Below the pieces are notes generated by a model. The model saw only the letters and a list, made by a program, of their open reading frames with translations, had not been told where the DNA came from and ran no database searches. A stretch of DNA of 64,000 nt, from assembly GCA_008632985.1 (NCBI GenBank), contig QPGO01000003.1, positions 372,001-436,000 on the forward strand. Reading direction: 5' to 3'. Positions 884 to 46,034 of the stretch are shown here, one piece after another. The stretch's first letter is position 1; each line of letters starts with the position of its first letter. The stretch comes from Psammoneis japonica. Its lineage: Eukaryota. The position numbers were made by a program, and so were the translations under genes.

Positions 884-1102
884 TTTCTGAAGAATTTCAC
901 TAAAAGAAGGAACTTGACAGAACGATGTCTCGTCTGAAGCGGACCAAGAGAGATACAATCCCAGAAAGGAGAACCACAAGAACAGAGTGTGAGGGCAACT
1001 TTGTGCGGCGCCGTTAGTCACCTATGATAAGTGATAAGCTGATTCATTAGCTTTTTTTTCGAAAAACCGATGTTGGGAAAAAAAAACGATGATGCTGCAT
1101 GC

Positions 1103-1145
1103 TGACGTCATAGCTGGGGAGTGTCTTGAGTTGACGTCATGACGT
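1103..1145. promoter_or_regulatory. Cluster of TGACGT(CA) bZIP/CRE-like sites upstream of the rhodanese gene
   Basis: TGACGTCA at 1103-1110 and 1132-1139, and TGACGT at 1140-1145, 220-260 bp upstream of the ATG at 883. Confidence 0.35.
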
Positions 1146-4100
1146 TTGTCGTTCGAGCGATCGACCCTTTCTTCTTACTTCCTCCAAATTTCGCCAGATT
1201 CTTGCAGTTCAGACAACAGCTTCTGCAACAAAAAGCTTTTCCAGTCAACAACCTTGAGCCTCTGCTCATCCTGTGTCACAGGTCACAGGTGATGCAGCCA
1301 GCATCGGCATGACAAATTGTGCGCCGAGCGGCGTTGCCGGGCACACACACTTGCCAGCAGCTGGGGCATTGCGAGACATCTGTTGTGCATGAGTGTCTGG
1401 CAAAGAAACTGCTCTTTATTGTTTGTGACTGTCAATCCAGTTTAGAAGTGCTGCAAGCTGTGAAAAATTAAAAATTTGGAAAAGCTGAGACCCAACCAAA
1501 CTGGCATGTTTCACCAGCACCCGCAATCTGTCACGCGACAGAGCTTGATTCTTTGTGCAGTTTGGTGCATCAACCTCCTTCAAATTTTTTCACTTCAAAA
1601 ATGGAAAGGTGAGTGCACATAAAAAACAAAAGCTTTGCATGCACCCACCCTTCAATTTGTTGGGGGGGGAATCGATTTTGAGGGAGTTCGTTGTGCCACA
1701 TGCAAAAATGGTCAGCGATGGGAGTCGAGCCTGTGCGCATCACCTGGAGCTGGAACAGGCCCATTGCACACCATGCATGCCTCTTCTTCCATGCCCAGGT
1801 GACATGCTGATGCACCTGTGTTTTTTTCCGTCGGCGGGTCCTCACCCATGCTGGCATCAAATGAAAAAACAAACTTGGCAACTTCGGCCTCAGGCAAACT
1901 CTCATCTCTGGCAAATGAGAGCTGCAGTTCATCTCACATCCCCCACTTTGAAACACACACATGACAGCTGGGAAAGATCTGACAAGCTGACTCCCAATTT
2001 TTGGAGCACACAGCAGGGTTGCCCGCTCTTCTTTTCCTGATCGCTTTTCTGTGTTTTTCCCATTTGCGGGCAGTGGAGTCTTTGCTTGTCAACATTGCCA
2101 GTGCCTGTCCCTCCAACCATTTCCATCCATGGCAACTTTGAGAACTGGCTGAAATCCTTGCTGAAATGGGAATGTTTGCACTGTTCTGCAACCCCTTGCC
2201 CTCCACGTTTCAGTCTTTGAAATCGCAGACTCCTTGGTGAATGTTCACGCTGCTGTGGGCAGCGATGCTTTGGCACTGCATTTTCATGGCACCTTTGGAT
2301 GGACATCAACTGTCAATGGGGCTCCCTCAGTTGATTGCGTTGGACCGGCATTTGGTTTTTGACCATCTTCCTGCCAAGCAGAAGCCTGTGGCTTTCTCAT
2401 TCAAGTGATGGAATTTTGCAAAGTGCATCCTGTCCCAAGGCAGGTGTGGATGCCTGCTGCAACAATTCCTCTCTGGTCCACAATGTGAAGAACTTCCACT
2501 CTCTGTCACCACATCCACTGGATGAGGAGGATGAATTTGACAAACAAAATGACTGTCATCATCAGCATCATGTTGCAAATGCATTGGCTCCCGACAACTG
2601 GGATGTGTTGCATGAGATTTTCATGTTGCTGCAAAGTTTGGAAGCTCACTCCATTGCGGAACAAGCTGACACCTTGGTCAGCATGCACTGGGTCAAAGGT
2701 CACCAAGACAACAACATTCTGCACAAGTCTCTGCCTCTTCCAGCAAAACTGAGTGTCTGTGCTGACAAGCTGGCAAGTGCATTCCAAGGTCAGTGCATTG
2801 GTGACACCTTGCTTGCACCTCACATGCCTCATTGTTCTGCAATGTTGACAGTCCAAGATTTGTTGGTGACTTCTAAATTCAAGTTGGTTCTGCACTGCAA
2901 AGCCCCCAGACTGCCCTGACAACATGTGTGAAGGAAAAGTGTGGATGGTCTGATGCAGTGCACTCTTCAATTGACTGGCACAGGTCCACTCCAAACAAAT
3001 GTCCTGCAACATTGGACGCAAGGTGTGAGCACAGTGAAAGTTGCACAAGATTTGCTTCCAACAAATGAGGTTGTTCGCCAATGAAATCCCACGTGCCCTG
3101 ACTGCTGCATGCATTGCCACCATCCACTCAAAGACAGAGACCACATTTTGCAGTGCAACCATGATGAGTCTTGGTGACGCACCTTTCTCCCAGGCTTGTG
3201 AAAGAAGTGCGATGATGTGCACACATCCCCGTCACCATGGGATCTGTTGTTGCACACTCTGGATGGCTGGTTTCATGATGAAATGCTTTGCTCTGAGAAT
3301 CTCCATCACAGTGTTGTGGTGGTGTGTTTCAATCTCATGATGAAATTTGCTGGAGACACATTTTCAGTGGGCGTTTCTCCTCATTGTGGAGTGACACCCA
3401 AAAATTGCACTTGTCATCTGCCGGTTTGTGTCGCTCCTTGCATGGCCAAGACAGGCAATTAGATTGGGCCGCTGCTGGAACAAGTTTTGTGTGGTCTCAA
3501 TGGTGGGAACTTTGGGACAGTCACAACAATGCAGTGCATGGGTGCGACTCTCTGAAATGAGAAAATCTTCTGAGCATGCAGAGATGCTGAGGTGGAAGTT
3601 GAGCTGTCTGCTCCAAGGCAGATGATCACCTGGCTTGCAATCAATCTCAGTTGTTTGATTTGATTGATGAGCATCTTGCTCATTTGACCCACAGATTGCA
3701 AAATTGGTTGGCTGTGGCCAGGCCAATGTTCAAGTCAAGCATCTGTGAAGCCCAGTGTCTGGCAGTTTGAGGCACGCACACCATTGCAAGTTGCTTCGGC
3801 ATGGCATCACCTGAGAGTGATGCCGATTCAGGCCAATTGTCACATGCTCTTGCTGCACCTGTTGCACTGGGAGTGTGGGTTGGCTTGTTGCCGGAGTCAC
3901 AGGGTGGAAGCACAGCAGCACTTGAAGAAATGAGATTTTGGGTTTTTGTTTTGTGTTTTCCCCATTTGGAGCAAAAGACTCAGCCACTGCTGCCCCAAGA
4001 GCTCTGCAGTGGGTGCCTCCACAAAATGCATTTGCCCCCAAATGGAGGTTGCAGCTCACACACACTTGTTTGACAGCCTGCCACGGCACACCTTTCCCAC

Positions 4101-5745
4101 AAGAGAGGGGTGCACGGTTGAAACAGCAGCAGCATGGTGTGTGCTGTGACCATCAACCAACACAAGCAATTTGGCCTTTTTTTCGATCTGTTGTTTCCAT
4201 CATTTCAGTGCATGCTCAGCAACCAACAAAATGGCTTGAGTCCAATGCTTCTGAAAAAAACACGCCAACACTTTGCGCCAAGCTCTCTTTCTCTGCCCCT
4301 CACCTCTTTCTTTCTCACAGGGCCAGGCAGCACACACAACAAACAATGCAGTTCCAGAAAAGGTGAACTCATGGAAAGGACAGCTTGTCATTCCTGCAAG
4401 CACAACAATGCAAAAGCCCTTTGAACCCAAGGACCCTCACGCTGTTGCATTTGCAACACACGAAGGGATGCGAGGGACAAAAAACACAGTGGCACGCTGC
4501 ACCTTGCGGCATTGTGCAGTTGACACTGTGGGTGTGACACAGCATTTTCTGCAATGTTGTGCAGCAATCCAAGTTTTGTCTCCGTGCTTGAATGTAAATT
4601 GTGTTGGGTCATTCTTTGATGCGGCTGGATGTCCATGATTTTGTCATTGGTGGTCATTCAAGACAAACTGAAAAAATGAGCCCCCATTGTGACCACCCAC
4701 AGAGAACACAAATCTTGAAATTGCACACACTGTAAACTCCAAAACTGCAATTGTAACCTGCAAGTTACGAGTGACGAGCACACAACCATGGTGGCCGATC
4801 AAACAGAACAACACCCAATGATCGCTGCCAGGCGTGCACAGATGCAGCCTGGAAGATTGGCCCATCAAACAGTGAATTGTGCGCAGCTGCAATCCAGAGC
4901 GAGACTTCATTGAATGTTGAATTCTGTGGTTGAAGTTCCTCATCTGAGCTTCCTGTTTCAGTGTGGTGGCTCTGCTTCTTCTTGTCGTTGTTGAAAATGT
5001 TCAGTCTACGACAACCGTGGGGGTGTGCGCCCAAGAGAAATTTGATGGCCCTGGCTCAAAAGACTGCAATGATGAAACTCTCAATCTGTTGTCAAGCCTG
5101 GAATTAAAACGTTCGGCGACCCCCATCTTGCATCAAAGCCACAAGGTTTTGGTGCTTTCCTCATGCCTGCCATTTCATGAATGTCTCTCAAATCTGCAGC
5201 CAGATGGGGGGTTGCAGCAGAGAACACCATGAAAGAACATGTTGAAAATGGTGGAGTCTTGTTGGCAGTCTCAGTGCAAACGGGTGCGCTCGCCTTTCTC
5301 AACTTGATTTTCCCTCTGGCTGGAACCTTGGTGATGCTGGCCACTGCTTTCCTGGCAATGGTGCACAAACAAACTCAGGGAACACAATGGGAACTGTGTT
5401 CCAAGGCGGGCTGGTGTTTCTTGGTTGCCCCTCTGCTGCAAAATTTTTCACATGCGGCAGCGTGTGGAATGCACACCAATGTGCGGGACGAAAAGCGCAG
5501 CATTGGCGGCGATGTTTCCCTTCGGATCCGGTTGTGTCGTTCTTTTTGCTTGGAACTTCTACGACAGTGGTCATGCCATCAATCTCCCAGGAGTTGGTGC
5601 TCGCGTTGACTGCCGCAGCAGAAATGATGTGTGGGCAACAGAAGTTCTTCCCCGCGCACTTAAATTTGCAGAACGACATTTTGTGGTGGCTCAGAGAGCA
5701 CGATCACGAACGGATCCACCTTCATGTTCTTCGCTGTCTGCAGCA
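1115..5745. other. TpA-depleted degenerate repeat block 1
   Basis: Very few TA dinucleotides, TG/CA excess and Tyr-free ORFs in all six frames. TA returns abruptly at about 5748. Confidence 0.8.
2090..3760 (+). mobile_element. Decayed non-LTR (LINE-like) retrotransposon 3' part: RNase H and C-terminal region
   Basis: Frameshifted RNase H motifs VGSD...GTFGW, GPAFG..SSCQAEACG (=SSYRAEAYG), CCNNSSLV (=YCDN), WDVLHEI, WVKGHQD and LSVCADKLA, then WELWDSHNNAVHG typical of diatom non-LTR elements. Confidence 0.75.
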
Positions 5746-6244
5746 GATTAGAGAGTCAGTAAGTCTAGAGCTCATCAATGACATGGATACGTCGCCAAAA
5801 GATGAACAGCTAGATAGAGTAGAGAGTGCAGTAATTACAAAATTATCATCTCCATTCCAACAACGCGCGCGAAAGTGCCAATTTTTTGCGCGGGCGCAAA
5901 ACCCAATTCCTTATTCTAATGACTGAAGAATGAAATAAACAACTTTACTGTTAGTATATATTCATCTACGTACATTACCCATTTTTCCGTTTTTGGTGTT
6001 GAAACGCACCAAGCAAAAGATCCACGTGGTGAAGAATCTTTTTCGTGGAAGTTCTCGCCAAATAATACTGCGTACGTAGAAACTGTGTAGAGAAAGTACC
6101 GATCCTGCCACGGAGCGACATCGGTCCCGTCGGAACAGAAAAACCTCACTTGTTGCTGTTGATGAAACATAGCTTTGTTGTTGCTGTACTTCACGTCTTG
6201 TTCTGGCAACAGCTTATAGCGTATAGCAGTCACTACCCAACAGG

Positions 6245-11835: not shown

Positions 11836-13098
11836 TGTTCCCAACGTCGGCCCTTTCAGTAGGAGTAGAGAAAGGGAGTCTACCTTTCGAACCGCAGAAC
11901 AAACTCTGACATCACTGAGCCATGAATCCACGAACCGCAAGAACGCTTGTCAGCTTTTCAGTGCTCGACTTTTTTCTTTTTCGCTCAATCGTGGCCAAAT
12001 TTTCAAAAAAGGGCTGTTATTTAATTGACGTTTATTGCCTTGTCGTTAAATAACTAGATTTTTGGTTTCTCCGTGAATACCGTTTATGACTGCATTGAAT
12101 TTAGCTTTAAGTAATGCTATTGCCTCTTAGACAAAAATTTTGCGGCATAAATCTATAATAATTTTTCGAGTCTAAACGTTGAATCGTTAATGAACTTGGG
12201 AATGCACGCGTATTTCTTTAAGTAGTTCTACATTTATGTGGAAACAGTTAAATCACTGAATGTCCGAACACCTAGGACGGACATCGGTAGATTTCTACAT
12301 TACGTCATTCAAGTTTAAGATTTTATCGGAGGGAGATTCCTCCACTGAGAATCGAGAAATACAATACGTAAAAAGGTTAATCATCGGTCGCTCGACGATG
12401 ATGCTCACGATTTCTTCAAAATCCATTACTTTTAATGCTACGGCCTGAATCTACCTTCTCAATTCATCTTTCAAGCTCCCTGAAACCTCAGCATAGAATC
12501 CCATCTTGTCATGTGTCAGAAAATCGTTCGTCACCAAGCATATGCACCTCGTCTTCGTGGACAAGCGGGTTCGCTGTTGTTCGATTACAGCGGAACTTTG
12601 GGCAGAGTATTGCAACTCATACTTCAGTTTCTCTATGACGAGGGAGTCCAACTAATAAAAAGAGAGATAAGGAAACTTAATGGAAGCATGGGTGAAGTTT
12701 CAGACGTGACAAAGGCCAACTGCATTGTCGCAGCCGGCGTGAATCTGTACAAGACCAAACACACGTGTGTTGTTGATGGCAAACGGTCTGAAAGAGCATT
12801 CTTCCTTTTTGACACTGCAATTTTTACTCACTTGCTTCGTCCAGCAATGACAGGAAATGACAATGCTGAAAGGCGGCTGCAGAGTGGGGCGGTTAAGAAG
12901 ACTGTGCAAAGGACGGAAGTAAGGAAAGCTGAAATGCTCCCTGAACGTATGGAGGTAGTGAGCAAAAAACATCCCATGTTGCATGTTGGGAGCGACGTTG
13001 CCCGAAAGGAAAATCGACATGCTTCGACTCATGATGTTACCGGTTCCAGGGTGACAAGGTCTACAATCAAAACAACTCAGTGTCCTCGTCTCATAAAA

Positions 13099-15623
13099 AT
13101 GAAGAGTCTCTTTCAACTTGTTCTTTTCTTGTCTGGAGTGTTTGCTTCGATTGAGGCGCTGCAAAAGCGAAGAAGACCAAGAATGGTTCACTTAAAACGT
13201 GCGCGGTGCCTCGACAAGAGGAAATGTCCCTTTGATCTCTCTGACGACCTTTCTAATGATCTGAGCGACATTGATTCCATTACTTTCGAGCTCGACGAAG
13301 GTGTCAACAAGACCTTTAGGCAAGCAGGCTATACGAAAAGCGACGCCTTTCATGGCGAGTACGGAGAGGAAGCCATGAATCTGGTGGTGCAAAAGATTCA
13401 GGGAAATGACCGCACTCTTTTGTTTGGATCCATCACTGATGGGAATAAGATCTTCAAGATTACACCAGACGCGTATGGGAATCAACGCATGCAGGAAACG
13501 TCATTGGACGAGTATGGTGACGAAGCAGAGCCTCTTGCGCCTCCTCAAGACAGTCATGATGATGAGCGGTTGTTGGTAGTCCCGACCAATGCGACTGTAC
13601 AACCAAGAATCTCCAGTGTTGTGGAATCGCCCTTTGAAATTGATGATCATGGCCAGCCACGAAAACTCTCCTTCGATGACAGCGGCAAGAATATCGATGT
13701 CATGGTGGTATGGACCAAGGACGCGGAGTGTGCCAACTCGGGGCAAGGCAAGGGCTGTACTCCTACAGTTCAAACCAAATCCAACATGCTTGGATTAATC
13801 AAATTGGCCATTGAAGAGACGAACACGGCCTACGAACTCTCTGGGATTCTCACAATTCTAAGGCTTGTTCATGCCTACAGGGACAACAATTACGATGAGC
13901 CAACCACACAACAAAGACAACTCCGAGATGCGATTGGCCATTTGTCGAGCACATCGGATGGGTTTATGGATGACGTACATGAAAAACGCAATATTTACGG
14001 AGCAGATGCCGTGGCACTTATCATTGAGGGTCGATACGACCGTACCTTTGGGATTGGTTATGTCGGGCCGTCAGCGAATGGTAAGTCTGTCACTCATTTT
14101 CTTGTGAAAAGTGTAATCTTGCTCTCTACTTGTGCGGCAGGAACCATTGCTAACGCGACTGTTTCAATGTAGCCATGTTTTCCGTTACCAGATATGCCTG
14201 CACCACTGGGAGATATAGTTTTGGTCACGAAATTGGTGAGTTCAATCATGTTTCAGTAGCGTTTCATATAGAAGTCGCCTTGTGAGAACTAATTTTCTTT
14301 CTCTTTTGTTCTTGTTCCGTTTAGGTCACAACATGGTAAGCTCTTTTCCTTTCTTTCTTTTGTCCGGTGAAACTCTTTTATTCTAAACCCCAACGATGAA
14401 ACTAACATCGCTTTGCGCTATCAAACAGGGATGTTTGCACGACAGGGGAAGAATGAACGAGTGTTCGACCTCTAATTATAACTACGGATATCGAGATCCG
14501 CAGGCTCGCTTTCGTACCCTTCTGGCAACGTATTGCGTTCCTGATCAGTGCGGTTTAAACAAAGGAGGTGGACCGTGCACTCGGATCCAGCGTTTTTCCA
14601 CTCCACGCCGAAACGTGGGTACATGTCGACAGTGGTCGCTGGTATTGTTTTTTCTTTTTCTTTTTCTCACTCTCGCTTTCTTTGTTTTGTGAATCTAGTA
14701 TAAAGGTGCGCCGCTGGGAAGCGCCATGGCTGACAATGTGAGATATATTAATGCCGTGAGTTCAAAAGTTGCCAAATATAGATCGGTCGTGCAATGCGTT
14801 GCGAATTTCCAGTGCAACGATAGCGACCCCTGTACATCTGATTCTTGCAATGTGTCGACTGGTAGATGTAGACATGTCGATGTTTGTAAAACACCTTCTC
14901 CGTCAAGGTCGTCAGCACCATCTACTTCAGCAAGGCCTTCAACAACACATACTCCGACTAGGGGACCGACGCCCTCGCCAACTTCTAAACCTTCGGTACT
15001 TACATTACCATATGACACTTTCACGACGACCCTTTAGGCGGCAAATGTGTATAAAGGTGAGCATTCACACCGTTGATGGCGAGCGAGCTGTTGCCTTTAT
15101 CCTAGTCTTATCCACTATTGTGTTGCACGTCTTAGGAAACATGTTTGATATCGACATTACCGAGGACGTGGAGATCATTGGGTTCGATATTCATACAAGG
15201 AGAACGGGGAGCGTCGACGTAGACGTCTGGACTCGGCCTGGCCAGTACATGCTTGACAATAACGATGGTCAATGGGAAAAGATTGACACTCTGTCTGCAA
15301 CTGGAAAAGGAAAAGGCAACCTCACAAGCCTGCCAATGCTCTCCAAAAGCGTGCTTGTATCGAAGGGCAGCAAACAAGCCTTTTGCATCACGCTAAAAAC
15401 AAATGATATGATGTATACTGCCATTCACTCTGCATCCGCCGACGGAGGCGTGTTTTCGACGAGTGACGATGGCGCTATCAATTTCTATGTCGGCCATGGC
15501 ATTGGCAATATTTTCTCTGATGATCACCACAGTCTTCGTGTATGGAACGGAGTCATCAAATACAGAAAGATAGAGGGAACATCATCGGGAACTCCATCAC
15601 CTACGCTCGTTCCTATTATTTGA
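13099..15623 (+). CDS. M12B/reprolysin-like zinc metalloprotease, copy 1; exons 13099-14080, 14173-14235, 14325-14335, 14429-14614, 14699-15056, 15136-15623; in-frame TAG at 15035-15037
   Basis: Signal peptide MKSLFQLVLF, RKL site, IDVMVVWT, YGADAVALI and spliced HEIGHNMGCLHD zinc motif. Exon structure matches copy 2. The premature stop removes the C-terminal domain. Confidence 0.85.
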
Positions 15624-18334: not shown

Positions 18335-21038
18335 TCACGCGGTTTGGCACCTAGGGTCGCACTGATTCGGGCAGGCGGAACTCGCTGGCTCTCCATTGAT
18401 GCCGACTTTGGAGCAGCGTTTATGCGGCCTCCTGCCAATCCAGCCACACTTCTTCAACCTACTAGTTCGGCGTTTCGGCTTGAACCTCCAATTGCGATCA
18501 TTTTCACAACTAAAAGAAACCTTGGGAGGGGAAGTTGGCGATTTGGTGGGTGATGCAGTTGGAGGGTTTCCCGATCCTGTCCCATCCAACTTTTTGTACT
18601 TGATGAGTCCGTTCCATACACGCGAACTGTGGTTATCATCGGAGAAAATTTCGCCAATGCCATGGCCGACGTAAAAATTGATAGCGCCATCGTCACTCGT
18701 CGAATACATAGCTCCCGTGGGTTTAGAATCAGTGGCAGTGTACATCATGTCACTTGTTTTTAGGGTGATACAAAAGGCTTGCTTGTTGCCCTTCGGGACA
18801 AGCACGCTTTTGGAGAGCAGGGGCAGGCTTGTGAGACTGCCTGTTCCTTTTCCAGCTGCAGTCAGAGTGTCAATCTTTTCCCACTGACCATCGGTATTGT
18901 CAAGCATGTACTGGCCAGGCCGAGTCCAGACTTCAACGTCGACGCTCCCCGTTCTTCTTGTATGAATGTCGAACCCAATGATCTCCACGTCCTCGGTAAC
19001 GTCGATATCAAACATATTTCCTGAAATGTGCAACGTAAGAGAGTTGAGTTCAACAATCACAAAAAAAACAGCTCCCCATCAACGAAGGAATACGCACCTA
19101 GATACCCATTTCCCGCGTCAAGGGTAGTCGTGAAAGTGTCATACAGTAATGGAAATGGCCCAGGATCGACTGGCGATGGCGTCGGCGGAGCCGTAGTCCG
19201 AATGGTTGGCGGCGGCGTTCGTGAAATTGTAGGAGCAGGGGGAGTTTGACAAATATTTACATGTTTGCAGGTGCCAGTTGACGTCTTGCAAGAATCCGCT
19301 GTACAGGGATCGCTATCGTTGCATTGGAAATCTGCCACGCATTGCACGACCGATCTGTATTTGGCAACTTTTGAGCTCACTTCATTGATGTATCTCACAT
19401 TATCAGCCTTGGCATTTCCCAGCGGTGCACCTTGATACTGGACTCACAAAGCAAAAATGCAACCATTGTTAGTGATAAAATGGATAAGATACCACAGATC
19501 ATTGTTGAAAAGCACTCACAGTTCGTTTTGGAGTAGAGAAACGTTGGATCCGAGTGCACGGTCCACCTCCTTTGTCTGAACCGCACTGACCAGCAACGCA
19601 ATACGTTGCCAGAATGGTGCGAAACCGGGCCTGCGGATCTCGAAATCCGTAGTTATAATTTGAGGTCGAACACTCATTCATTCCTCCCCTGTCGTGCAAG
19701 CATCCCTGTTTGACAGCGCCACGCGATGTTAGTTCATTGTTGTTGTTTAGAATACAAGAGTTTTGTCGGACGAAAAAAAAAGGGAAAGGGAAAGGGCTTA
19801 CCATGTTGTGACCTAAACGGAACAAGAACAAAAGAGAAAGAAAATTAGTTCTCACAAGGCGACTTCTATATGAAACGCTACTGAAACATGATTGAACTCA
19901 CCAATTTCGTGACCAAAACTATATCTCCCAGTGGTGCAGGCATATCTGGTAACGGAAAACATGGCTACATTGAAACAGTCGCGTTAGCAATGGTTCCTGC
20001 CGCACAAGTAGAGAGCAAGATTATACTTTTCACAAGAAAATGAGTGACAGACTTACCATTCGCTGAGGGCCCCACGTATCCAATTCCGCATGTGCTGTCG
20101 TTTCTACCTGCAATGATAAGTGCCACGGCGTCAGCTCCGTAAGCATTGCGTTTATCATGCACATCATCCATATTCCCATCCGATGTGCTCGACAAATGAC
20201 CAATCGCATCTCGGAGTTGCTTTTGTTGTGTGGTTGGTTCACTGTATTTGTTGTCCCTGTAGGCATGAACGAGCCTTAGAATCGTTTTAATCCCAGATAG
20301 TTCGAAAGCAGTGTTTGTCTCTTCAATGGCCAATTTCACTAATCCAAGCATGTTGGCATTGGTTTGAGGTGTAAGAGTACAGCCCTTGCCTTCCCCCGAG
20401 TTGGCACACTCTGCTTCCTTGGTCCATACCACCATGACATCGATGTTCTTGCCACTGTCATCGAAGGAGAGTTTTCGTGGCTGGCCATGATCATCAATTT
20501 CAAAGGGCGAATCCGCAGCACTGGAGATTTTTGGTTGCACAGTCGCATTGATCGGGGCTGCCAAAAACCGAAAATCACCATGACTGTCTGGAGGAGGCGC
20601 AAGAGGCTCTGCTTCGTCGCCATACTCGTCCAATGACGTTTCCTGCATGCGTTGATTCCCATACGCGTCTGGTGAAATCTTGTAGATCTTGTCTCCATCA
20701 GTGATGGAACCAAACAAAAGAGTGCGGTCATTTCCCTGAACCTTTTGTACCACCAGATTCATGGCTTCCTCTCCGTGTTCGCCATGAAAGGCGTCGCTTT
20801 TCGTAGGGCCTGCTTGCCTAAAGGTCTTGTTGACACCTTCGTCGAGCTCGAAAGTGAAGGAATGAATGTCGCTCAGATCATTTGAAAGGTCGTCGGAGAG
20901 ATCAAAGGGACATGTTCTCTTGTTGATGCACCGCGCCCGCTTTATGCGGACCGATCTCTCTCGTCTTCGCTTTGGCAGCGCCTCAATCAAAGCAAACACT
21001 CCTGAGAAACAAAGAGCAAGTTGAAATAGACTTTTCAT
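18335..21038 (-). CDS. M12B/reprolysin-like zinc metalloprotease, copy 2 (intact); exons 21038-20057, 19964-19902, 19812-19802, 19705-19520, 19437-19098, 19020-18335
   Basis: Same architecture as copy 1: spliced HEIGHNMGCLHD, CNDSDPCTADSC module, Pro/Thr linker, GNMFDI domain and a C-terminal Cys-rich module. All introns are GT-AG. Confidence 0.88.
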
Positions 21039-21324
21039 TTTTATGAAAAGAGGAAATGATGTTAGTTTTGTCGACGGAGCCGTTGCAGAGGTAACCCTTG
21101 CAATGACTCTGTTATGTGTGCTTATTTTGATTTTTTTTGAATGGAGCAGTTTGCTTTCGTGTTCTTGTGATGACGGAGGTCATCGAGGAGCCAATAAAGG
21201 TCATATGTCTTTTAACAGCATTAATGGCTTGAAGATGTATATGAAGTCATTATATGACTTTACATTGATTGGTATCCATATACTAAATCAACTAAAAAAT
21301 CTGAACATTAAGCCTCGCCGACCT

Positions 21325-21530
21325 TATTTGTCAAGGCTGTCCAATGACATAGAAGTTTAACGGCATTGACACATTTATTGGAATTCGAACTAGGCTTTTA
21401 AAAGCCACGTTGTCTCCTGATATGATTGCTTGAATGTAAAGCCTTTTCCGTTGAACCTCCGGGTGTCGATCCTGTTGTTTTATGTTGTGACCATACGAAA
21501 ATGACCGTGTCGTGAGGGATGAGAGGCCGC
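21325..21530 (+). repeat. About 200-bp dispersed repeat, copy A (retains TA); homologous to 23635-23830
   Basis: Shared blocks tttgtcaa.gctgtccaatgacat.gaagttt, ttgacacat, gaactag, aagccttttccgttgaacctcc, tgtgaccat and aatgaccg. Confidence 0.8.
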
Positions 21531-21829
21531 GACAGTCATCACAAATTCCGCACAGTCAAATGCCATTCTCAACGACGCTTTTATTTTTGGCATGTGTGCG
21601 GTCATGTAGGTAGCTCCGAGTTTATGAAAAAAGAAGAGGAAAAGGAGGAGGAGGAGAGAGGAGGGAGAGATGCATTCGCAGTCTAGAGCATGTGCAGTGT
21701 GTTCAACGAGCATGCACGACGCCCAGACGATGAGCGCTTCCAACGCAGCTGGTCGCAGCTCTCCAGCTGGCAGCAAATGCTCTAAAAAATAGAAACATGC
21801 CATGGTCTATCTAAATGCATTTTCTGCTG

Positions 21830-24800
21830 CTTCATTGCTCACGGAAAATTGCATGCCCACTGCTGGCTGACACTGCCGTTAAGATGCAACCGCACGCCAA
21901 GCCAAAACTCCATCACTTTTGACCGCCGGCTCCACCTCATTTCATCCATTTCCTCTCTAGACCTGACTGGATGCGGAAAGTTCCAGGATCTAATTTTCCC
22001 ACATCAACAAAGAACATCAAAAGACTCAAGTCATGGAGAGCATTGGCATGGAAAGGCAGCTGCAAGCCCTCGCAGTCAAAGACATCTGTGCTGAAAGAAT
22101 GACAGGCAAAATGAAAATGTGAATGAAATCACACACACAACAACAATCTACTGAGGCCACATGTCACAGTGTGCTCACTGTGACAGCTTCCAGAGGTGGC
22201 TCTGAGACACCCTGCCTGGTTTTAAGACCCCAAGTGCTGCCAGAGTGGTTCGTGGCATCCGAGCATCCAAGAGGAGGCGAGGAGCCCATCAGGGCAGGCC
22301 TCCACTTCTCCATTTTACCTGGTGCATGGCCTGGGCTTGTTGGTGCACTGCCAAAATCTCCCTGCATGATGTGGACAATGTTGTGTCTTGGACAATGAAG
22401 AGAATCGATTGCAGAGCAGGAAGAAAGGCTCGTCACAGACCAGACACCTGCGCGCATGAACGAGAAGAAAAAAAAGGCTCGTGAGGTGTGCGTCTTTCAT
22501 CAAAACAACTCTAAAACCCAATCAATTACAATGCACTCACATGATTGTCTTCTTTGGAGTGTTTGAAGTCTGTCTGACAAATGCCACCATCATGGGTGTC
22601 CCCGAGGCTCCATCGCATTGTTTTGTTTCCATGGCATGTGCTTTTGACACTCCCAAAAAATGACACGCCATTGTCACACACCTGCCAAGACCCCAAGAAG
22701 GACATCAAGAGCATCACAAGTCTGTCTTAACATGCAAAATGGGTGAGCCAAAGGATGCTGAGTGGGGTGAAGCATGAAGCTCCCAAATGGATGCGCTCTG
22801 GCGGTGCCAATGACTTGAAAAACATGCCAAAAAACCAGACACCACAATCGACCGCAGGAGACGATCCATCCACTTTTCAAGCTGCAACAAAATGCAACAA
22901 TGATCTTCAGTGACTGGGAAAATCACATGAAATGAGAAAACACAGAAAGAACTTGCCTCGGCAACGTTTTCGACCATTCAGATGTCACCCGCACAGTGCA
23001 GCAATCAAGGCACGAGTCGATGCACGCAACCGTTTGAACCGTGTGTCAAAACCAAAGCCCCCTGGAAGCCAAACCAGTGTGTCAACCTCTTCACAACAGC
23101 AATGGAAAGAGATCACACATGAAAAATGTGTCTGTCCCACCATGTTTGCCATGACGAGATGCATCAAAGTGCAGTGTGCATGGCTGTTTCTCAGTCTGTG
23201 GTGCGGCATGCCAAATCGAGAGCATTTGAGCAGAATGAAGGAAATGAAGAGGATTTGCTCTTTTGTGTCATCACACAACTTGCACCAGATTGGACCGTTC
23301 ATTTCTGCTTGTCGCCACAGAAATGGAGCTGTGTCGTCACAGGATTCTGCACAAGTTCCAGTGCATTTCCTGCACAGTTTATGAAGAGCTGCCTCCGCAG
23401 CTGGACGATTGCCTCTCTGCTGGTGGCAGAGGTCACGGCCTTGCGGCTTCAACAAAGTGCTCACAACCACTGAGATGGTTTGTGTGGCCTGCACACAAAC
23501 CCATGAGATCATTTTTTGCCTCCCCATTCTCCTCTGGCTCTCAGATTGCCATCATCTGGCAAAAAACCCATTCTTGCAGAAAGAGTTGCTGAGACAAAAG
23601 ACGCTTCCCCCACCACATCTTGTTCCCCCAACTTTTGTTTGTCAATGCTGTCCAATGACATTGAAGTTTGATGGCGTTGACACATCGCTGGAGTTTGAAC
23701 TAGTTTTTTAAGCCTTGTTGTTGCATGATTGAATTTGAAGCCTTTTCCGTTGAACCTCCAGGCATCTTTCCTTTTGCTGTTTGCTGTGTGACCATCATGC
23801 CAGCACCAGAATGACCGATGGTCTCTCAAAACACAAACAAGCCACAGCTTGCTTGCTCTGATGAGCATGACAGTCATTGCACACTTGAGTGCTCTTCTCA
23901 AAGCAAGATGCTTTTGGACCATGTCTCGTGCCCCAAACAAAAGCACTCAAAACCCACAAGATTTCAATTTTTGCCTCCCCCTCTCAACCTTGGCAGATTG
24001 CCACACCTGCCCAAAAACCCACTCCTGCAGAAAGAGCACAGAGATGAGAAATGAGAAACAGGATTTTTCCAGCACCGCCTCTTTGCACAGGATGCAAGAT
24101 GATGCAGTGACTGTGTGTGAGGTGGCACCTGGCCTCCTGTTCAAGCTCTGGGTGATGCGCACAGGCTTGATTCCCATCACTGACCCATTTTTGCATTTGG
24201 CACAATGAACTCATCCTTTAAAGTCAGTTTTTTCCCCACAAATCAAAGGGCAAGTGTGCACAAAACTCATGTTTTTTGTGTGCACTCATCTTTCAATTTT
24301 TAAAAATGATCAAATTTGAAAGAGTTTGATGTGCCAAACTGCACACACAAAATTGCCCTCTCATGTGACAGATTGCTCATCACCTGGGGCTAGAACAGGC
24401 ACCACCTGGTCAGCTTGTGCACTGTGCAAAGCAGGTTTTTGCTTGCCTGGCTGGCAGCAGCATTGCAAAAAAAATGTTGTCCAGAGCACATGTGCAAGAG
24501 TGGGAATGGTGAAAGCGTGGCACATGCATTGGGCAGCATTTTCAAGCTGATGGCAATGATGCTCGGAGTTTTGGAGCAAGGAAACACAGTTTTGGGTGTT
24601 GCAGGAGGAGGTGCAGCCATGGCCAATGGGCATCACTTTGCCTTCTGCATGCTGGCGGGCAACCTGGAAAGGAAGCGGAGGCGTGATGTGGCTGGGCAAT
24701 GGGCCATCCTTTCAGCAGGTGCTGCACAAGAACGTGTGAGCCGTGGGCCCTCCAAGGTTTTAGAGTTCCTTTGTGACAAGAAGGATTTTGGTGTGCCGCC

Positions 24801-26450
24801 AATGTGCAGAGCCAAAGTTGGGTTGTGGCTGCAGCTGAGAGGCACATCTGTGATGGGGCCAAGACTCAGAGCAGTGCTTGGGATTTTGTCTTTGACACCA
24901 ATGCAGAGAGGATTTTCAGTGCCCATGCCAACAGAAATGGGAGCCAGCAGCATTTTGCCAATGCATGGACTCACTCCCTGGTGGCCGCAGCTTGGCAGGA
25001 TTTTGCCATTGCAAAGTGGAGATCAATGCAGAGGTGACAGTGTGGGGGGGGCAAATGCCGTTTGTGGATCAAGGTGAGAGAGAGCAGCATGAGCAAGCTG
25101 CAGAGCTGAGCTGTTGAGAGTGTGTGTCAACTGGCAGGTTGGCTGGTCCAGGGGTGCAGCGCAGATGGGAAACATGGCCAAAGGCAGTGCCATTGTTGGT
25201 GCTGGAGGCTTTCTGTTCACAGGACATCTGAGGTGCATCCTTTTTGGTGTCAACAGAGCTTTTGTTGCCTTGTAAAGCAGCCAGCATGTTGCTGTGTCAT
25301 GTGTGGACCATCTTTGCCCTGCACAAATCAGTTGCCAGCCAAGCAGCAGAGCTGGAGTTGGGTGCAATGGCATCTTGGATGTCAGCCAGTGGGGGGCAGT
25401 TGACAAGCCATGGGGGGGACCTGGAAGCAGATTGCCTCAAAATCAGTCAGCAGCTGGAAAGAGCTCAGCTGACTAACTTGGTCCAGCAGCAGTGTTGAGT
25501 GTGAGGGAGTGCAAATCCTGGAGTTTCCAGCAAGTGTGCCAGCTGAACTTGGTTTGAAAGTCCATTGAGAGCTGAGGGCAACAGTGAGTGCTTCAACAGC
25601 ACTGACTTTCAGAGAACTGTCAGCAAGCCATGGAGGAGTCACTGAGGATGGAGAGCAGTCTCTCTTGTGGCTGGTGCTGGCCAAAGAGTCTGGGAACCCC
25701 CAAAGTGGCATTGATGGCGGCCCTGGGCCACACTGCATCTCTCTCAAACAGCCAACTTTTTGAGACAGACAGTCTTTCACTGGCACTGGCTCTCATCAAA
25801 TTCTGTGCCAGGGCAGAATGTTTGATCTCGGATGTGAAGCAGTCAACAACACAGACAGCTGAGATGTGCCTTGCTGCCTTGTGCTGCTCCCACACCTTGT
25901 TGTCCACACACACACTTTGAAGTGTTGGATGGCTGGGATGAGGACCCCAGCGGCACCATCTCTGTGGCACGTTGAGGAGCATGGATTTGGAAGAAGGTTG
26001 TTCCAGCTGCTGCTTTGTCTTGAGTTTACATTTTGGTGACAGGACATTGACATTTGCAGGGCCTGAGTTGATGACACATGAGTTGGAGGGGATTGCTCCA
26101 GGGGGTGCACTGGTGGATCCCACACTGCAGCTGAGCAGGTGTTGGCCAGATCAACTGATGTCTCAGCTCCCCCTGTGCAAAAAAAAGCTCTCAATCCAAC
26201 CCATGGCTGGTGTCAGTGGCAGATCCATCAGCAGTGGCTCTTCCCCTGGCTCGATGGGGGATGTTGCTCTGAGCTTGGGCATGGCTTCTGGGTGCAAGTC
26301 AACCCTGTGCTAAAACCCGTCCAAAAGGTCCAGCTTTCTCATCATGCAGATGCCACATCCAAAAGCTGGGTCACCCGAAGTGTGTCACAGAGCACTTGTG
26401 TGGCCTCTGGAGGAGCCAGCTTGTGCATCTCGTCGCATTGAGCCCATTAG
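21830..26450. other. TpA-depleted degenerate repeat block 2 (element family not recognised)
   Basis: Same composition as the other blocks. Contains repeat copy B (23635-23830) and an internal repeat pair near 23510-23585 and 23967-24035. Confidence 0.75.
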
Positions 26451-26724
26451 CTGCAGTTAACAATGGATCTGACAGAGGCGCCATTGGTGGCCAACAAAAC
26501 ATGTGGGTCCAGCACGTGTTGAAAATTGAAACGTCAAAGATCATTGCAGCCCTGCAGGAGATACGCATCGAAATAGCAGCGTCACAGGCGTCGTCATCCC
26601 CGCGTCTAAGAAACAGTGCTATTCTAGCCTCGCGATGACAAAGTCTATTTGATGTCACCAACACCAACTGCAATGGCTCACAACAGTCAAGCCCTTGCAA
26701 GATCGCATTTCGTTTTTTACAAAC

Positions 26725-27699
26725 TCATTTACTTTTTTTTAGGGCTGTCTTTAGAGCCTTTCGATTCGACTCACCTCCCCAAAGACTCAAGAATACGTCT
26801 TGTTCTGTTCTGCGACAGTCGTCATTCTCGGCGTGTGCCACTACCCTTTTGATTCCTTGCAACACATGAGGGTCTGCATGCGTGAAACGTTCCAGAAATT
26901 CAATTGTCGTGGTCTCGGGTGTGGGAGTTACTTTATCAACCAACTTCATCTCCAAGCATTCTTGGGCATTGCAAGCCTTTGAAGCTCCCAGCAATTCCAA
27001 AGCTCTCGCTCTGCCCACCACATCTCGTGCTAGACGTGTTCCTCCACCCCATCCGGGCGACAGACCCATTTTCGCGTGCACAAATTGAATTGTAGACCGG
27101 TCATGCATGATTCTATAATCCATGGCGGTGCATAGTTCTGCTCCACCCCCAACAGCCATTCCTTCAATCAAGGCGACCGAAACCAATGGCAGCTTTTGAA
27201 AACGTGAAAGGCTGTCCATCATGGTGGAACTCATTTTGAATCCACCATCTTTAGTAATTAAGTGCTCCTTTGCTACACCCAAATCTGCACCGGCACAAAA
27301 GAATTTATTCTGACCCCGCACAACGATCGACCTTAGAGAGCCGTGATTAGATTCAAGCTCGTCCACAATGTCGGCGAGTTCAGCCATCATTTTACCGGTA
27401 AAGGCGTTGCGGGAGGATGGATTGGATACTGTAATTACGGCGGTGGAGTCTCCCAGTTTTGACCACGCCGAGTACTTCTTTTTAGACATTTCGGATGCGA
27501 GTTCACAGGAAACTGTATCATCGGTGGAACCATATTGACGAAGGCTTTCGCGAATCTCCAAAAGCTCTTCGCGGGATAAAGAAGACAAAGGCCTTCTTGA
27601 ATTTCTTTGCTGTTGTTGAATGAGCGTCGATCGACTACTATTTGCACTTTTCACTCCACGACGACCCCTGAAGTGAGTCAATATGCATGACCTCACCAT
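26725..27699 (-). CDS. ECHDC1: Enoyl-CoA hydratase/crotonase family, ethylmalonyl-CoA decarboxylase-like
   Basis: NPSSRNAFTGKMMAEL, FCAGADL, EGMAVGGGAELCTAMDYR, MGLSPGWGGGTRL and FLSLWGGESN. Basic N-terminal presequence from MVRSC. Confidence 0.82.
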   Translation of the reverse strand: MVRSCILTHFRGRRGVKSANSSRSTLIQQQQRNSRRPLSSLSREELLEIRESLRQYGSTDDTVSCELASEMSKKKYSAWSKLGDSTAVITVSNPSSRNAFTGKMMAELADIVDELESNHGSLRSIVVRGQNKFFCAGADLGVAKEHLITKDGGFKMSSTMMDSLSRFQKLPLVSVALIEGMAVGGGAELCTAMDYRIMHDRSTIQFVHAKMGLSPGWGGGTRLARDVVGRARALELLGASKACNAQECLEMKLVDKVTPTPETTTIEFLERFTHADPHVLQGIKRVVAHAENDDCRRTEQDVFLSLWGGESNRKALKTALKKSK

Positions 27700-28449
27700 G
27701 ATATGATGCGTCAAGCGAAATGATTGAGTAAAACGGCAGTGAACTTTCAATCTGAATCTGATTTCTGATTTATCACAGCGACGTAACCTTGGACGCTCGC
27801 TCCACAATCCACAATCGATCCAAATAAATCCAGGCGACACGCGAGATCGTCGGATCTTCCGCCAATCACCTAAACAATAAGTCGTGTTTCAGTCGTGCAA
27901 CCGTCGAGCGACCGCGCACGCAGACAGGGAAGGAACGCTCGTGATGATGTTGACGTTCGATTGCATACATAGAGGTCTTTGAAGGATATCCTGCAAAGAT
28001 TTTCGAAGCAACAGGGACGCTTATTTCTTACTGATCATTGCTGATAAAGTGGTGATCATATAGGCCATTTCATTTTATTCCACATTCAGCATATGACCAA
28101 CATGCTCATACGGCGATTTTTAACGATTGCCGTTACCGATTTATGTTGGCGAAAATAAACCGTGATCGCACGTTTTCCGCAGTCCCACCAACAGCGAAGT
28201 GCTAAACGATGCGATGTCAAATGGTTCAGTTTCCCAGTACGCATCCACACTGGACGTGCACCACAATCTTTCTCACAATTCGTACAAAGCGTTTTCTGTG
28301 AACGAAATCGCAACGGCAAAGTGGTAAGAGCCATGTCGTCCTTTGATTCCTCTCTGTCTCGCTCAACGTTGCTGCGTCAAGCTTGTGATATCCATCCGCA
28401 ACTAACGTAGGCGTTTGCATCTTTCTTTTTCACTCCAGTCGCTGAAACA

Positions 28450-36964: not shown

Positions 36965-38075
36965 GAAGATTCTTTTGCTGGAACTTGTCAGCACGCACAG
37001 CACCGGCAGAGCACGCCGTAGAGACCATGAAGAAGAAGTCTCATCGTAAAGCAGACGCAGCGATGACATGTGTGTGTGTGTGTGTCTTCCAGTCGAATTC
37101 ACAGAGAGTCTTTTTTGGCAAGTCATTCGATCATCACAAAGCATCGCTCCCCATCATCGCCTTCTTCTGGCAAAACAGGTGTGAACACAACTGGTGTGGT
37201 TGCTCCTCCTTTGCAAGCAGAAACTCTGGACATGCTGAGCAGGTGGATGATCAAAATTGATGGGGGGCACTTGATTGTGGCAAGGCAGCTTGCTGGCCTT
37301 GGCTGCCCAAAAAAAGTTTCGAGAACACTTGTGCTGGTGTGGAGACAAAAACACATCCTCGCCCGCCAGAGGAGATTGAGGCAAGACCATTGTGGCCACT
37401 TTGCCGGCTGTTTTCCAAAAAGCACAAGGCTCTTTCCACTCACAAACTTCATGGTGCAAGTTTGATCTTTTACACATGAAAAGCACACCAGCAAACAAGT
37501 GGCACAAAAGACTGGTGGGAAAAAATCTTTTGCAGTGGGTTTGTGGCTCGCCATTTTTTGCTGCAAAAAACTGGAAAAGTTGTTGCCAGCTGCTCTTCTT
37601 AAATTCAGCATTGGCCACCAAATGGCACTGCCAGCATCTGCACCCCCTGCTGCCACATTGTCTTGCAAGAAGTTTGGCAAAATGACAAAGCGGGCAACGG
37701 CAACCTCTTGCATTGCCAGCACATTTCTTGCTGTGCTGGTGCTCTCTGCCATTTCTTGTGCCAAGTTCATGATGGCAAGTGCATGGAAACAGCAAAAAAT
37801 GGAAACAGAAACCAGCCTCCCCAAGTTGCAAGAGATTTTGGCTGCAGCAAGGGCCCGCTGGCTGGTGGCACAGCTCACCACTGGTTGACAGGGCATGTCT
37901 GATGGCAACCTTGCATCCAAATGGGAGCAAACAAAAGCAGGTGACAAACATTGGCAATCTGCACTTTGCCACAATGTCCAAACCTGCCATTCTTGCTGCA
38001 GTGTGCATGTGCCCCCTGATGTTGTGGGCTTCGAATCAACAACAGATGTGTGAAAAGATTCGCTGGTGGACACTT
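36965..38075. other. TpA-depleted degenerate block 3 (family not recognised)
   Basis: Almost no TA over about 1.1 kb, TG/CA-rich, with overlapping nearly Tyr-free ORFs, in the divergent intergenic region. Confidence 0.7.
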
Positions 38076-38261
38076 TGTAACAGAGTGTTAAAATTATCGT
38101 CATCAAAAATGACTTAGGTTTCACACTCTTTGAGGGCTTATTTCATCAGGGCTTATTTTTCAATCGTTTTTCAACGCAGAACAGTGACCCGAAGAGTCAC
38201 ATGACAACGTCGTTCTTCACGACCTCGCAACTAGCTTCACATTTACACGCAGCACACAGCC

Positions 38262-41250: not shown

Positions 41251-42287
41251 GATTAATCTTTTTGTTTTTTAAAAGCAAGAAATGAGAAGGTGTACAGTAC
41301 AACAATGGGGTGGAGATACTATGGTTGAACTGCTATGATCTTGAATCTGTGATCGCTCTTTTCACCTGCCGCCAAAAAAAAAGCGTTCCGAGGCGATGAC
41401 GCAACTGCCACGTCACCGTTTCGGCACCAACTCACATCTTTGACTCGTCGGACTAAAAAAGTCTCGCACCGCCGGTGCTACAGCATAAAAAAAAAGGTTG
41501 TCAAACAATGGACCTTTCTTCATTTCAAGATTTTTGCCTGGGTGGGGACAGACTGTACGTCAAGCGGAAATTGGGCAGAATTTCTTGTTGGAACTCTCCC
41601 TGTGGACATCAGACCGCGCCCCGCAGCTTCTGGTGCTTTTCCAAAGATGCGAGCACAAATTCAAAAATCACCAACGGCGAAAATGGCACTCATCTCTGCG
41701 ATGCCAATTTTGAAGACGATCGGCTCCACACTGCCAACAACCCCCATCCCATGACTGACATGTGTGTGTTGTGATGTCATGGTGAGAAAAATCATTGTGT
41801 TGAGTTGAGTTTGTGCATCGTGTGGTGCAGTGTCGTGTTTTGATGGTTTTGGGGGTTGTTGCATGCCCTTGTCTTGCTCACAGTCATTTGTCTCGCATCA
41901 TGTTGTAGAGCAAGGCATTGACACTCCATTGTTCACAGTGTTGAAGCTTTCGTGAGTGATGAGAATTGAGTTGTGGATTGTGGGAGTGTCCTCAGTGACC
42001 AGCACTGCCGATCATTCGTGGACGCAGCAGGAGCCGCTTCTCATCTGCTGTTTGCTGTGCTCGATGGTTTGCAATGTCCAGAGTGTCATCAGAAACAGAG
42101 TGCAATGAGGTGCAAAGGGCATTGGGGTGATTCTCAGGTGCCAGTGTCGCAGTGACTAGATTGAGATTGTGAGGAGAGGAGACTCTCAACGTTCCCTCTT
42201 CTGAATCACTTGAGCGACGTTTTCATTGCTGACGTGAGTCTTTGCAATGGCAAGTCACAATGACCGCAATGATGATTTGACAATCTT

Positions 42288-42705
42288 TGCACTCCCTCTC
42301 ATTGTGTCTTGTGAGTTTAATCAACCAATCAGATCAATTTTGGCTGACTCCGGTTGCTGTTGTTCATGAAGAGAAATTGCCCTTCACACTCACCAACCCA
42401 TGACCAAAGGACGTAAGGCTTCAAGTGCCTCGGCCGTCAAGGGCTTGGTGAGACAGTCTGCCAGTTGATCCTTTGCATCAATGACATGCATTGAGATCTC
42501 CTTCCTTGTGACACAGTCACGGAAGTGATGCAACTTGACATTTGAGTGCTTGGTGCGTGGTCTGCACTTGTGTGCACGTGCCATCTCCAGAGCACCGCTG
42601 TTGTCCTCAAACACTTGACAATGAATCTTGGGCTGCAACATCTTGACAGGGAATCCATGCCACTTGAGTTCTTTCAGCATTTCCATCAAGGGTGTGGCTT
42701 CTTGG
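42288..42705 (-). mobile_element. Ty1/copia pol 3' end (RNase H C-terminus) with polypurine tract and probable LTR start
   Basis: EATPLMEMLKEL...VFEDNSGALEMA..KCRPRTKH.NVKLHHFRDCV...DQLADCLTKPL...MGW*. GAGAGGGAG at 42300-42292 is followed by TGCA. Confidence 0.85.
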
Positions 42706-42724
42706 AAAGCTGAATTGTTTGGAG

Positions 42725-43090
42725 AAGTGTGCCAGAAGCAACATTGCACACATCACCCACCAGTGCACACGGTTTGCGGCAGATCCCAAGGTTGAGCACG
42801 GCAAGGCCATGCGATGGCTGGGCCGACACTTGTGCAAGACCAGAGACAAGGGCACTGTCCTGAAGCCTGCAAAAGGGAAGGATTTGGAAGTGTGTGTGGA
42901 CGCAGATTTTAGTGGAAATTGGGATCCACGAGAAGCAGGCTAAGATCGCGACACAGCAAGATCGCAACACGGTTGTGTCGTTGCTTGCACGGGTTGTCCC
43001 ATGCTGTGGAAATCTCAGCTTCAGACTGAGACAGCCTCAAGCAGTGCTGAGTCTGAACACACTGGCTTGTCACATGCTTTACGAGAAGCC
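42725..43090 (+). mobile_element. Ty1/copia RT end and RNase H start, inverted relative to 42288-42705
   Basis: RSNIAHITHQCTRFAADPKVEHGKAMRWLGRHL..T.DKG...LEVCVDADFSGNW...WKSQLQTETASSSAESEHTGLSHALREA. Confidence 0.85.
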
Positions 43091-43612
43091 CACACAACAA
43101 GTTTGGACGACATTTGTGCTGTTGATTTGTTTGGTTCATGTGTGTTTGCAGTGAGTGTGATCAATCTTGTGCTCATCCTTGTTGCCAGATGTGTTGGAGC
43201 CACTTTTGTGTCATTTGCATGCAATGGCTGGACTTGGAACTCAACAATGACACCTGGATTGGCCCCCACACAACAAGTTTGGATGATGTTTGTGCATTTA
43301 ATTTGTTTGGTTCACACATGCATTTGCAGTGAGCGTGATCAATCTCACGCTCATGCTTGTTGCTGGACGCGTTGGTGCCACTTCCACATCGTTTGCACAC
43401 GATGCCTCTGCTTGGAACTCAACAATGCCTGGATTGGCTTTTGCACAACAAGTTTGGATGACATTTGTGCATTTGATTTGTTTGGTTCATGTGTGTTTGC
43501 AGTGAGCGCGATCAATCTTGTGCTCATCCTTGTTGTTGCATGTGTTGGAGCTGCTTTCATGTCATTTGTGCATGATGCCTTGGCTTGGAACTCAACAACA
43601 ATGCCCGGATTT
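43091..43612 (+). repeat. Tandem repeat, about 175-bp unit x3
   Basis: caacaagtttgga at 43095, 43271 and 43446; ttggaactcaacaa near the end of each unit. Confidence 0.92.
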
Positions 43613-43654
43613 AAAAAAAAAAAAAGACAGATTGAGTCAGCCAAGATCTGTGAA

Positions 43655-43925
43655 GATCCAAGATGTCGAGGGAACCATGTCGCACTCAGCATTGCTGCCA
43701 CCGCAGATGTTTCTCATCTCTCGTGGACTGGCAGCCACAACATTCTCAGTGTCATTTTGGCACTCTCTCACTCCAACCCAAGATGTCGAGGGAACCATGA
43801 CATTTCTCATCTCTCGTGGACTGGCAGCCACAGCATTCTCAGCATCATTTTGGCATTGTTCTCACTCCAACCCATTCCGATTTTGTCATTTTAGCACTGT
43901 TCTCACTCCAACCCATTCCGATTTG
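43655..43925 (+). repeat. Short nested duplications
   Basis: ccaagatgtcgagggaaccatg...tctcatctctcgtggactggcagccaca x2 and ctcactccaaccca x3. Confidence 0.85.
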
Positions 43926-45960: not shown

Positions 45961-46034
45961 GCGCTGCTCCCAATGCAGCCAGTGAATGCTTCTGTTTCCC
46001 CACTCCTCCCATCAGCTCCAAACAAAATTTCAGG

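Follow-up and report, generated by a model that had tools for sequence, protein, structure and literature searches.

The stretch of DNA analyzed here, a gene-rich 64,000-nucleotide window from the diatom Psammoneis japonica (assembly GCA_008632985.1, contig QPGO01000003.1, positions 372,001 to 436,000 of the forward strand; positions below count from the first base of the window), contains a short duplicated sequence whose two copies, A and B, lie on opposite sides of the border of a region almost devoid of the dinucleotide TA. Two-state segmentation of the window delimited four such TA-poor blocks (1112-5748, 21992-26447, 37048-38077, and 41487-57397; 26 kb in total), across which TA density was 1.9-3.8 per kb compared with 37-42 per kb outside. 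Block 2 (21992..26447, unstranded), at whose border the duplication lies, had 3.8 TA and 14.8 CG per kb, the latter compared with 51-66 CG per kb outside. The block at 37048-38077 is just 1 kb long and is flanked by two intact genes. The blocks contain reverse-transcriptase (RT) relics and multi-copy elements and include the low-copy DNA between these elements, and the genes sit outside; when 19 open reading frames (ORFs) of the window were tried against Pfam, 16 had no match, all block ORFs among them.

The blocks differed from the rest of the window in a narrow set of dinucleotides. Observed/expected ratios (O/E) in the blocks versus outside were 0.05 versus 0.59 for TA and 0.29 versus 0.97 for CG, the ratios of TG and CA were raised (1.80 versus 1.15), and those of AA (1.18 versus 1.16) and AT (0.92 versus 0.92) were unchanged. 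Because AA and AT did not change inside the blocks, the target is strictly TpA on this arm; the other arm is equally specific for CpG, and TG and CA are the products of both. Depletion of TA and of CG coincided in four of the four blocks and was confined to them. A flank preference was evident as well: the 75 TA left in the blocks included 42 in YTAR and 2 in RTAY contexts, compared with 301 and 439, respectively, among the 1527 outside. A plain GC or codon effect was rejected, since GC content was approximately equal and only TA, CG, TG, and CA shifted much.

Copy A (21324..21590, + strand), the left part of duplication unit 1, lies outside the block; its core (21324-21507) has normal TA and CG and is followed by a weak extension to approximately 21590, which taken alone gave a score gain of 15, matched by 13 of 291 random tails. 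Copy B (23635..23925, + strand), the left part of duplication unit 2, lies inside block 2, and its core (23635-23817) holds 2 TA (one in CTAG, one in TTAA) and 4 CG. The two cores were identical at 140 of 172 locally aligned bases (~81%), with an alignment score of 173 compared with a maximum of 37 for 97 random stretches of the window. All five nucleotide differences that a first-pass annotation of the window had cited for this pair were present in the alignment, and its placement of A outside and B inside block 2 was borne out by the segmentation. Homology upstream of A and B was rejected (score of 58 versus a null 95th percentile of 57).

A second pair of direct repeats, R1 (23491..23621, + strand) and R2 (23943..24083, + strand), lies on either side of B, forming the right parts of units 1 and 2, respectively. 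Both are inside the block, are ~80% identical, and hold 0 TA each; with one TG/CA swap between them, they offered too few informative sites. The offset from A to B is 2311 and that from R1 to R2 is 451-455, and when ~21590-23480 was omitted, A plus R1 was collinear with B plus R2 (score gain of 119.5 versus at most 43.5 in 294 random tails). The omitted DNA is insert X (21595..23480, unstranded, ends approximate, with best split points at 21582-21610 and 23472-23490), a ~1.9-kb multi-copy element of no assigned class that splits unit 1. Copy number was gauged from the contigs of a sequencing run (X1, one of three runs listed, all of one sample) matched at a likeness threshold of 80%; the run may come from the source sample, so these contigs are not independent, and their depth is a rough guide only. 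Summed X1 depth was 540-3130 over X and ~55 over its flanks, which places X at 10-55 times that depth, whereas A, B, and most bins of the RT relic described below were each covered by one X1 contig at a depth of 54-60. Because A+R1 and B+R2 are collinear, and because X is multi-copy and A and B are each in a single contig, the arrangement [A+R1][B+R2] is a local head-to-tail duplication of ~450 bp in which a multi-copy element interrupts unit 1. An assembly artefact was rejected because A (727 bases, 4 letters differing) and B (848 bases, 8 letters differing, 1 gap) occur on separate X1 contigs; among the X1 contigs listed, none runs across the whole stretch.

The first-pass annotation had called A and B repeat copies; that they belong to a repeat family was not confirmed. 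Neither blastn nor a transition-tolerant scan of the window revealed a third copy (next best score at most 93, versus 231), and none was seen in the X1 contigs at 80% likeness or more (a threshold that less alike copies would escape) or when metagenome contigs were searched with an exact pattern of 20 bases. A dispersed repeat family (miniature inverted-repeat transposable elements or long terminal repeats) was accordingly not supported, A and B having one X1 contig each at 80% likeness and no further copies found. For X itself, there was no Pfam match in six frames, no Atlas match, and no Rfam match within 21000-24600; its ends carried no convincing terminal inverted repeats, and a degenerate 24-base pattern drawn from X had no match in metagenome contigs. 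In one X1 contig, 23413 is connected to 21595 through 12 intervening letters, which makes 21595 a likely end of X and hints at tandem or circular forms.

To the right of R2 follow a short, weakly palindromic multi-copy element (24136..24399, unstranded; 14 contigs with loose ends at 24136, depth of ~2000) and then a frameshifted RT relic (25735..26342, - strand; tblastn of homologues, best E value of 1e-15), which is probably DIRS/Ngaro-like. Block 1 holds another copy of the short element (1523-1759), which is 77% identical; both copies are TA-poor. Alternatively, the four parts A, R1, B, and R2 might represent split direct repeats (A1-internal-B1-A2-B2) belonging to a tyrosine-recombinase retroelement with X inside, in which case A would be a spared element end and not host DNA. 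Such a four-part order is expected for retroelements of this kind and agrees with that observed, the adjoining RT relic is probably of the same class, and the contig joining 23413 to 21595 also speaks for this arrangement. The other copies of X, however, do not continue into A, B, and R2 (single contigs at 80% likeness), and X is without coding similarity. Since the presumed termini do not share the copy number of X, we rank this explanation low and regard it as highly unlikely.

Within the aligned cores, A has 10 TA (16.1 expected) and B has 2 (13.5 expected). From A to B, TA reads TG at 21325, 21358, and 21437, CG reads TG at 21361, 21386, and 21408, and CG reads CA at 21460; the change at 21408 is additional to the differences cited by the first-pass annotation. 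When the fates of all sites were tallied over five alignment settings, the 10 TA of A corresponded in B to TG/CA at 3-4 sites, were kept at 1, were otherwise changed at 3-4 (with one clear TA-to-TT difference at 21350), and fell in gaps at 1-2, and the 8 CG of A corresponded to TG/CA at 4, were kept at 2, and were otherwise changed at 2. One site was reversed (CA in A at 21364, CG in B), and one further site was a TG/CA swap. Conversion to TG/CA was the commonest fate, yet at 7-8 of 18 sites it was not that of the majority, so that the first-pass statement that the TA and CG of A "mostly" read TG/CA in B was too strong; the direction tally was 7:1 (two-sided p = 0.07). Its statement that CTAG and TTAA are retained in B stood for CTAG, which is common to both copies (21391/23701), and for the TTAA at 21399/23709 solely under a hand-placed gap; the TTAA at 21358 was converted. 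The sequence context of the transitions was nonetheless biased beyond chance: 9 fell among the 32 bases within the TA and CG of A versus 7 among the 140 bases elsewhere (Fisher p = 0.0004). At 21486-21487 in copy A, an X1 contig has TA, in a TTAT context, in place of the TG of the window, which may reflect either an allele difference or a single hit of recent date.

Because two copies without an outgroup cannot polarize themselves, both histories were simulated, with 20,000 runs under each of four settings. Starting from an A-like ancestor under context-free mutation, TA counts as low as that of B (2 or fewer) arose in 0 of 20,000 runs under all four settings. The reverse history, in which the unit was copied from block DNA that had been mutated beforehand and A later left the domain and regained ordinary TA and CG by drift, performed better only when all of the 19% divergence was placed on the A branch: the mean was then 7-8 TA, and at least 10 TA plus at least 8 CG arose with P = 0.013-0.046 (at least 10 TA alone, P = 0.13-0.23). 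The weak extension of A, with 1 TA versus 6 expected, is also in keeping with this history. It requires a frozen B, however; with divergence evenly split, the probability was 0.00035, and a B-like sequence would itself be expected to carry ~5 TA, so that removal of TA at B is still required. In addition, A together with its upstream flank has 9 RTAY among 29 TA, which is background-like. We consider the reverse history very unlikely.

Two lines of evidence from beyond the pair indicate that the block DNA is in the derived state, namely the other copies of X and the protein homologues of the RT relics. Variants between the window and other contigs were available as 40 of 551 rows, picked by support, 35 of which lie in X; 12 of these 35 had TG/CA in the window versus TA in the other contigs (2-14 contigs each), 6 had TG/CA versus CG, 1 was reversed, 6 were other transitions, and 10 were transversions. 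For the RT relics, 150 homologues were recovered by an HMMER search with the block 4 RT ORF (a word-based homologue search with the same ORF returned nothing) and mapped to the window with tblastn; of 12 homologues checked, 6 matched Pfam RVT_1, below its cut-off. Block 2 contributed 67 conserved columns and block 4 contributed 387. Conserved Tyr was kept at 0 of 9 columns, 7 of which are now His or Cys, while His was kept at 11 of 11, Phe at 15 of 17, and Trp at 13 of 18; the 32 conserved Arg columns held CGN at 2, AGR at 5, and TGN or CAN at 19. Block 4 also contains, at 54000-57400, another RT relic belonging to the family of the one in block 2. That the B side lost TA and CG is therefore the best reading, and the direction claimed by the first-pass annotation is supported by the X copies and the RT homologues; its description of the pair as direct directional evidence is not, because a B-like ancestor retains the probability given above and the pair is in itself no direct proof.

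The position of the damage was followed across the block edge. TA density was 55 per kb over A and its upstream flank (29 TA), 34 per kb at 21596-21830 (8 TA), and 18 per kb at 21831-22000 (3 TA), and it then remained at 4.7 per kb in the rest of X, 3.1 per kb over R1-B-R2, and 3.5 per kb to 26447, beyond which it was 32 per kb. The edge of block 2 therefore sits inside the left ~400 bp of X, with TA loss grading across it and RTAY sites vanishing first. Low-copy DNA between elements was as bare of TA as the elements themselves, and a single duplication unit is intact in its A part and TA-free in its R1 part. Because the loss fades over ~400 bp within X and covers low-copy DNA, position and not element identity best predicts damage. 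A role of location in the change, as claimed by the first-pass annotation, is the best reading, although the pair alone shows a location-linked TA deficit and not direct proof of direction.

Homology could also set the target, by pairing or small RNA as in repeat-induced point mutation (RIP), with B, R1, and R2 hit as linkers and A escaping as an outer flank whose homology is too short or too diverged. This alternative differs from the best reading by its trigger, not by its direction. The blocks coincide with repeats and transposon relics, B lies between R1 and R2 and also between two multi-copy elements, and the available text on Neurospora describes a DIM-2 pathway under which single-copy linkers become mutated when close direct repeats flank them (10.1101/344036). 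Against this alternative, one copy of a closely linked duplicate was spared (albeit a short one), the left 400 bp of the multi-copy X were just partly hit and many other X copies keep TA, and an 85%-identical linked gene pair and the genic tandem arrays of the window all lie outside the blocks. The larger target in Bigelowiella natans, as described in the preprint text, is single-copy (10.64898/2026.01.13.699255). A hit on a whole domain fits these observations better than a pairing-triggered process, which we judge unlikely.

Taken together, A and B are copies from one ~450-bp tandem duplication, and it is likely that a region-wide mutator converted TA and CG of B to TG/CA. In the order we propose, the unit A+R would have been duplicated head to tail, X would have inserted into unit 1, with more elements lying to the right, and the DNA from inside X to ~26450 would then have become a silenced domain. 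Within it, the A of TpA would be changed to G on either strand (giving TG or CA on the + strand), fastest with a pyrimidine after the A, and CpG would decay to TpG/CpA, while A would have remained outside the domain beside an intact gene. A DNA adenine deaminase guided by the chromatin domain is a tentative candidate for the TA arm, somewhat short of probable. For the CG arm, the balance leans toward deamination of 5-methylcytosine, because diatom genomes hold isolated CG-methylated transposon islands.

The same direction and position could result from other chemistry, such as an error-prone polymerase in repair patches of methylated DNA or the decay of a modified A or T at TpA. Polymerase eta has a preference for WA. 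The coincidence of TA and CG loss in all four blocks is what would be expected if repair of methyl-CpG damage recruited a polymerase that mutates A after T, but AA and AT are unchanged in the blocks, and in B. natans the TA arm, in the text of the preprint, runs with almost no C-to-T change (10.64898/2026.01.13.699255). We regard such chemistry as possible but somewhat unlikely.

Several observations weigh against the conversion of B by a region-wide mutator. A B-like ancestor with all divergence on the A branch reached the counts of A at P values that are small but not negligible, and the A/B pair remains unpolarized since there is no third copy and the 7:1 tally is not significant two-sided. 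Most of the A/B divergence is not of the TA/CG type, because 16 of the 32 substitutions are transversions, to which several indels are added. The tally of X rows is not an unbiased rate, since the rows were picked by support and the window has few TA and CG left, and the nine Tyr columns include 1 in block 2 and 8 in block 4. The edge gradient depends on just 8 and 3 TA, and the left end of X may have been spared as an element end rather than by its position. Finally, a gene copy near block 2 is TA-poorer than its paralogue (27 versus 10 sites), which a sharp domain does not explain.

With these reservations, we tentatively propose, as a plausible reading that we hold at less than even confidence, that diatoms run a DNA adenine editor guided by chromatin domains. 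A transposon-seeded silenced island would have every TpA turned to TG/CA alongside CpG decay, single-copy host DNA included, with an edge fading over ~400 bp and independently of any homologous pairing; the A/B duplication would then be a natural control in which address selects the target rather than sequence or repetition.

The gene just mentioned is the neighbor of copy A, which lies ~290-550 bp upstream of it; its 5' part (19965..21038, - strand) encodes an M12B/reprolysin-like metallopeptidase (Pfam Reprolysin_3, E value of 4e-6). The two metallopeptidase paralogues (13068-15604 versus 21070-18545) are inverted, 85% identical, and both outside the blocks. The one nearer block 2 has CA/TG versus TA in the far copy at 27 sites and the opposite at 10 (p = 0.008), a comparison that is unpolarized; CG was balanced (17 versus 18), and the TA deficit had no gradient along the gene. 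This deficit possibly reflects mild leakage of the mutator into a gene that is intact. The two copies do not differ over ~230 bp near 19800-20020, perhaps through gene conversion. On the other side of block 2, the best named relative of an enoyl-CoA hydratase gene (26725-27888) was from Amphora at 50% identity, fourth among at least 120 matches, with oomycetes as the next named relatives at 43-47% among the matches listed. Contigs of another run (X2) on 20900-27000 gave just two gene ends and pieces of X (~85-90% identity). In block 4, tandem repeats at 43089-43611 and 45715-45961 showed 16 and 2 TG/CA swaps, respectively, as expected if, once duplicated, a shared TA or CG was resolved on the one strand in one copy and on the other strand in the next, or if CA-to-CG change also occurs. 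A short ORF at 42390-42752 in the same block resembles the RNase H end of a copia element and had no Pfam match.

How a genome-defence mutator chooses its target is an open question for the TpA process, and the effects of sequence and location can be told apart in a duplicate that has one copy within a block and the other beyond it. As a duplication A/B is ordinary, but it is a small and real natural control, whose 18 informative sites add modest evidence for action by domain. If many such pairs agreed, targeting would be by chromatin domain and not by RIP-like pairing. The TpA process would then also occur in a second eukaryotic lineage, in a stramenopile besides a rhizarian, and such genomes would give distorted repeat consensus sequences and transposon ages.

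Among known systems, the diatom methylation landscape bears on the domain. In the sections available of a study of diatom genomes, isolated CG-methylated transposable-element islands, DNMT5, and co-marking by H3K9 and H3K27 methylation in P. tricornutum are described (PMC9998398). These repeat islands in otherwise unmethylated DNA resemble the blocks and would account for both the domain and the loss of CpG; those sections make no mention of a mutation footprint, a TpA effect, or "deamination". In Neurospora RIP (RID, DIM-2), as far as the available text goes, repeats similarly undergo dense, dinucleotide-specific transitions that can spread to single-copy linkers through heterochromatin (10.1101/344036). 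RIP, however, is C-to-T change mainly at CpA and is homology-dependent, whereas the process in this window removes TA, creates CA/TG, and leaves one of two close duplicates unharmed. Because the dinucleotide change is opposite (TA O/E of 0.05, TG/CA of 1.80), the process is not RIP. A literature search for TpA erasure in diatoms, with subscription papers largely outside its coverage, found no report.

The closest known system is the TpA hypermutation of Bigelowiella natans, of which the TpA-erasing process here is a variant, described in a single preprint (10.64898/2026.01.13.699255). According to its main text, change of TpA to TpG/CpA was measured in mutation-accumulation lines, where two viral regions had 231 mutations, all but one of them (230) A-to-G or T-to-C at TpA, at a rate ~1000-fold over background and in some lines only; the larger viral region is single-copy, an ADAT2-like protein is only a candidate, and targeting by RNA guidance or epigenetic marks is offered as a suggestion. 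The two systems agree in A-to-G and T-to-C change at TpA giving TpG/CpA, in confinement to foreign or mobile regions (integrated nucleocytoplasmic large DNA virus (NCLDV) and virophage DNA in B. natans) whose DNA need not be repeated, and in clustered windows poor in TpA and rich in CpA and TpG; TpA-poor coding sequences in B. natans are enriched for RT and DDE domains. They differ in that B. natans is a rhizarian with a measured rate and P. japonica a diatom stramenopile with a fossil footprint, and in the extent of erasure, which is near complete here (O/E of 0.05, compared with 0.45 in the NCLDV region of B. natans). CpG is lost here too, whereas "CpG" and "diatom" are absent from the main text of the preprint, and the CG arm may be a second, overlapping process. 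A flank rule operates here, and "context" and "trinucleotide" are likewise absent from that main text; the mutation list in its Table S2 bears on this point. In contrast to the viral targets of B. natans, the blocks of P. japonica, 1-16 kb in length, lie over transposon relics.

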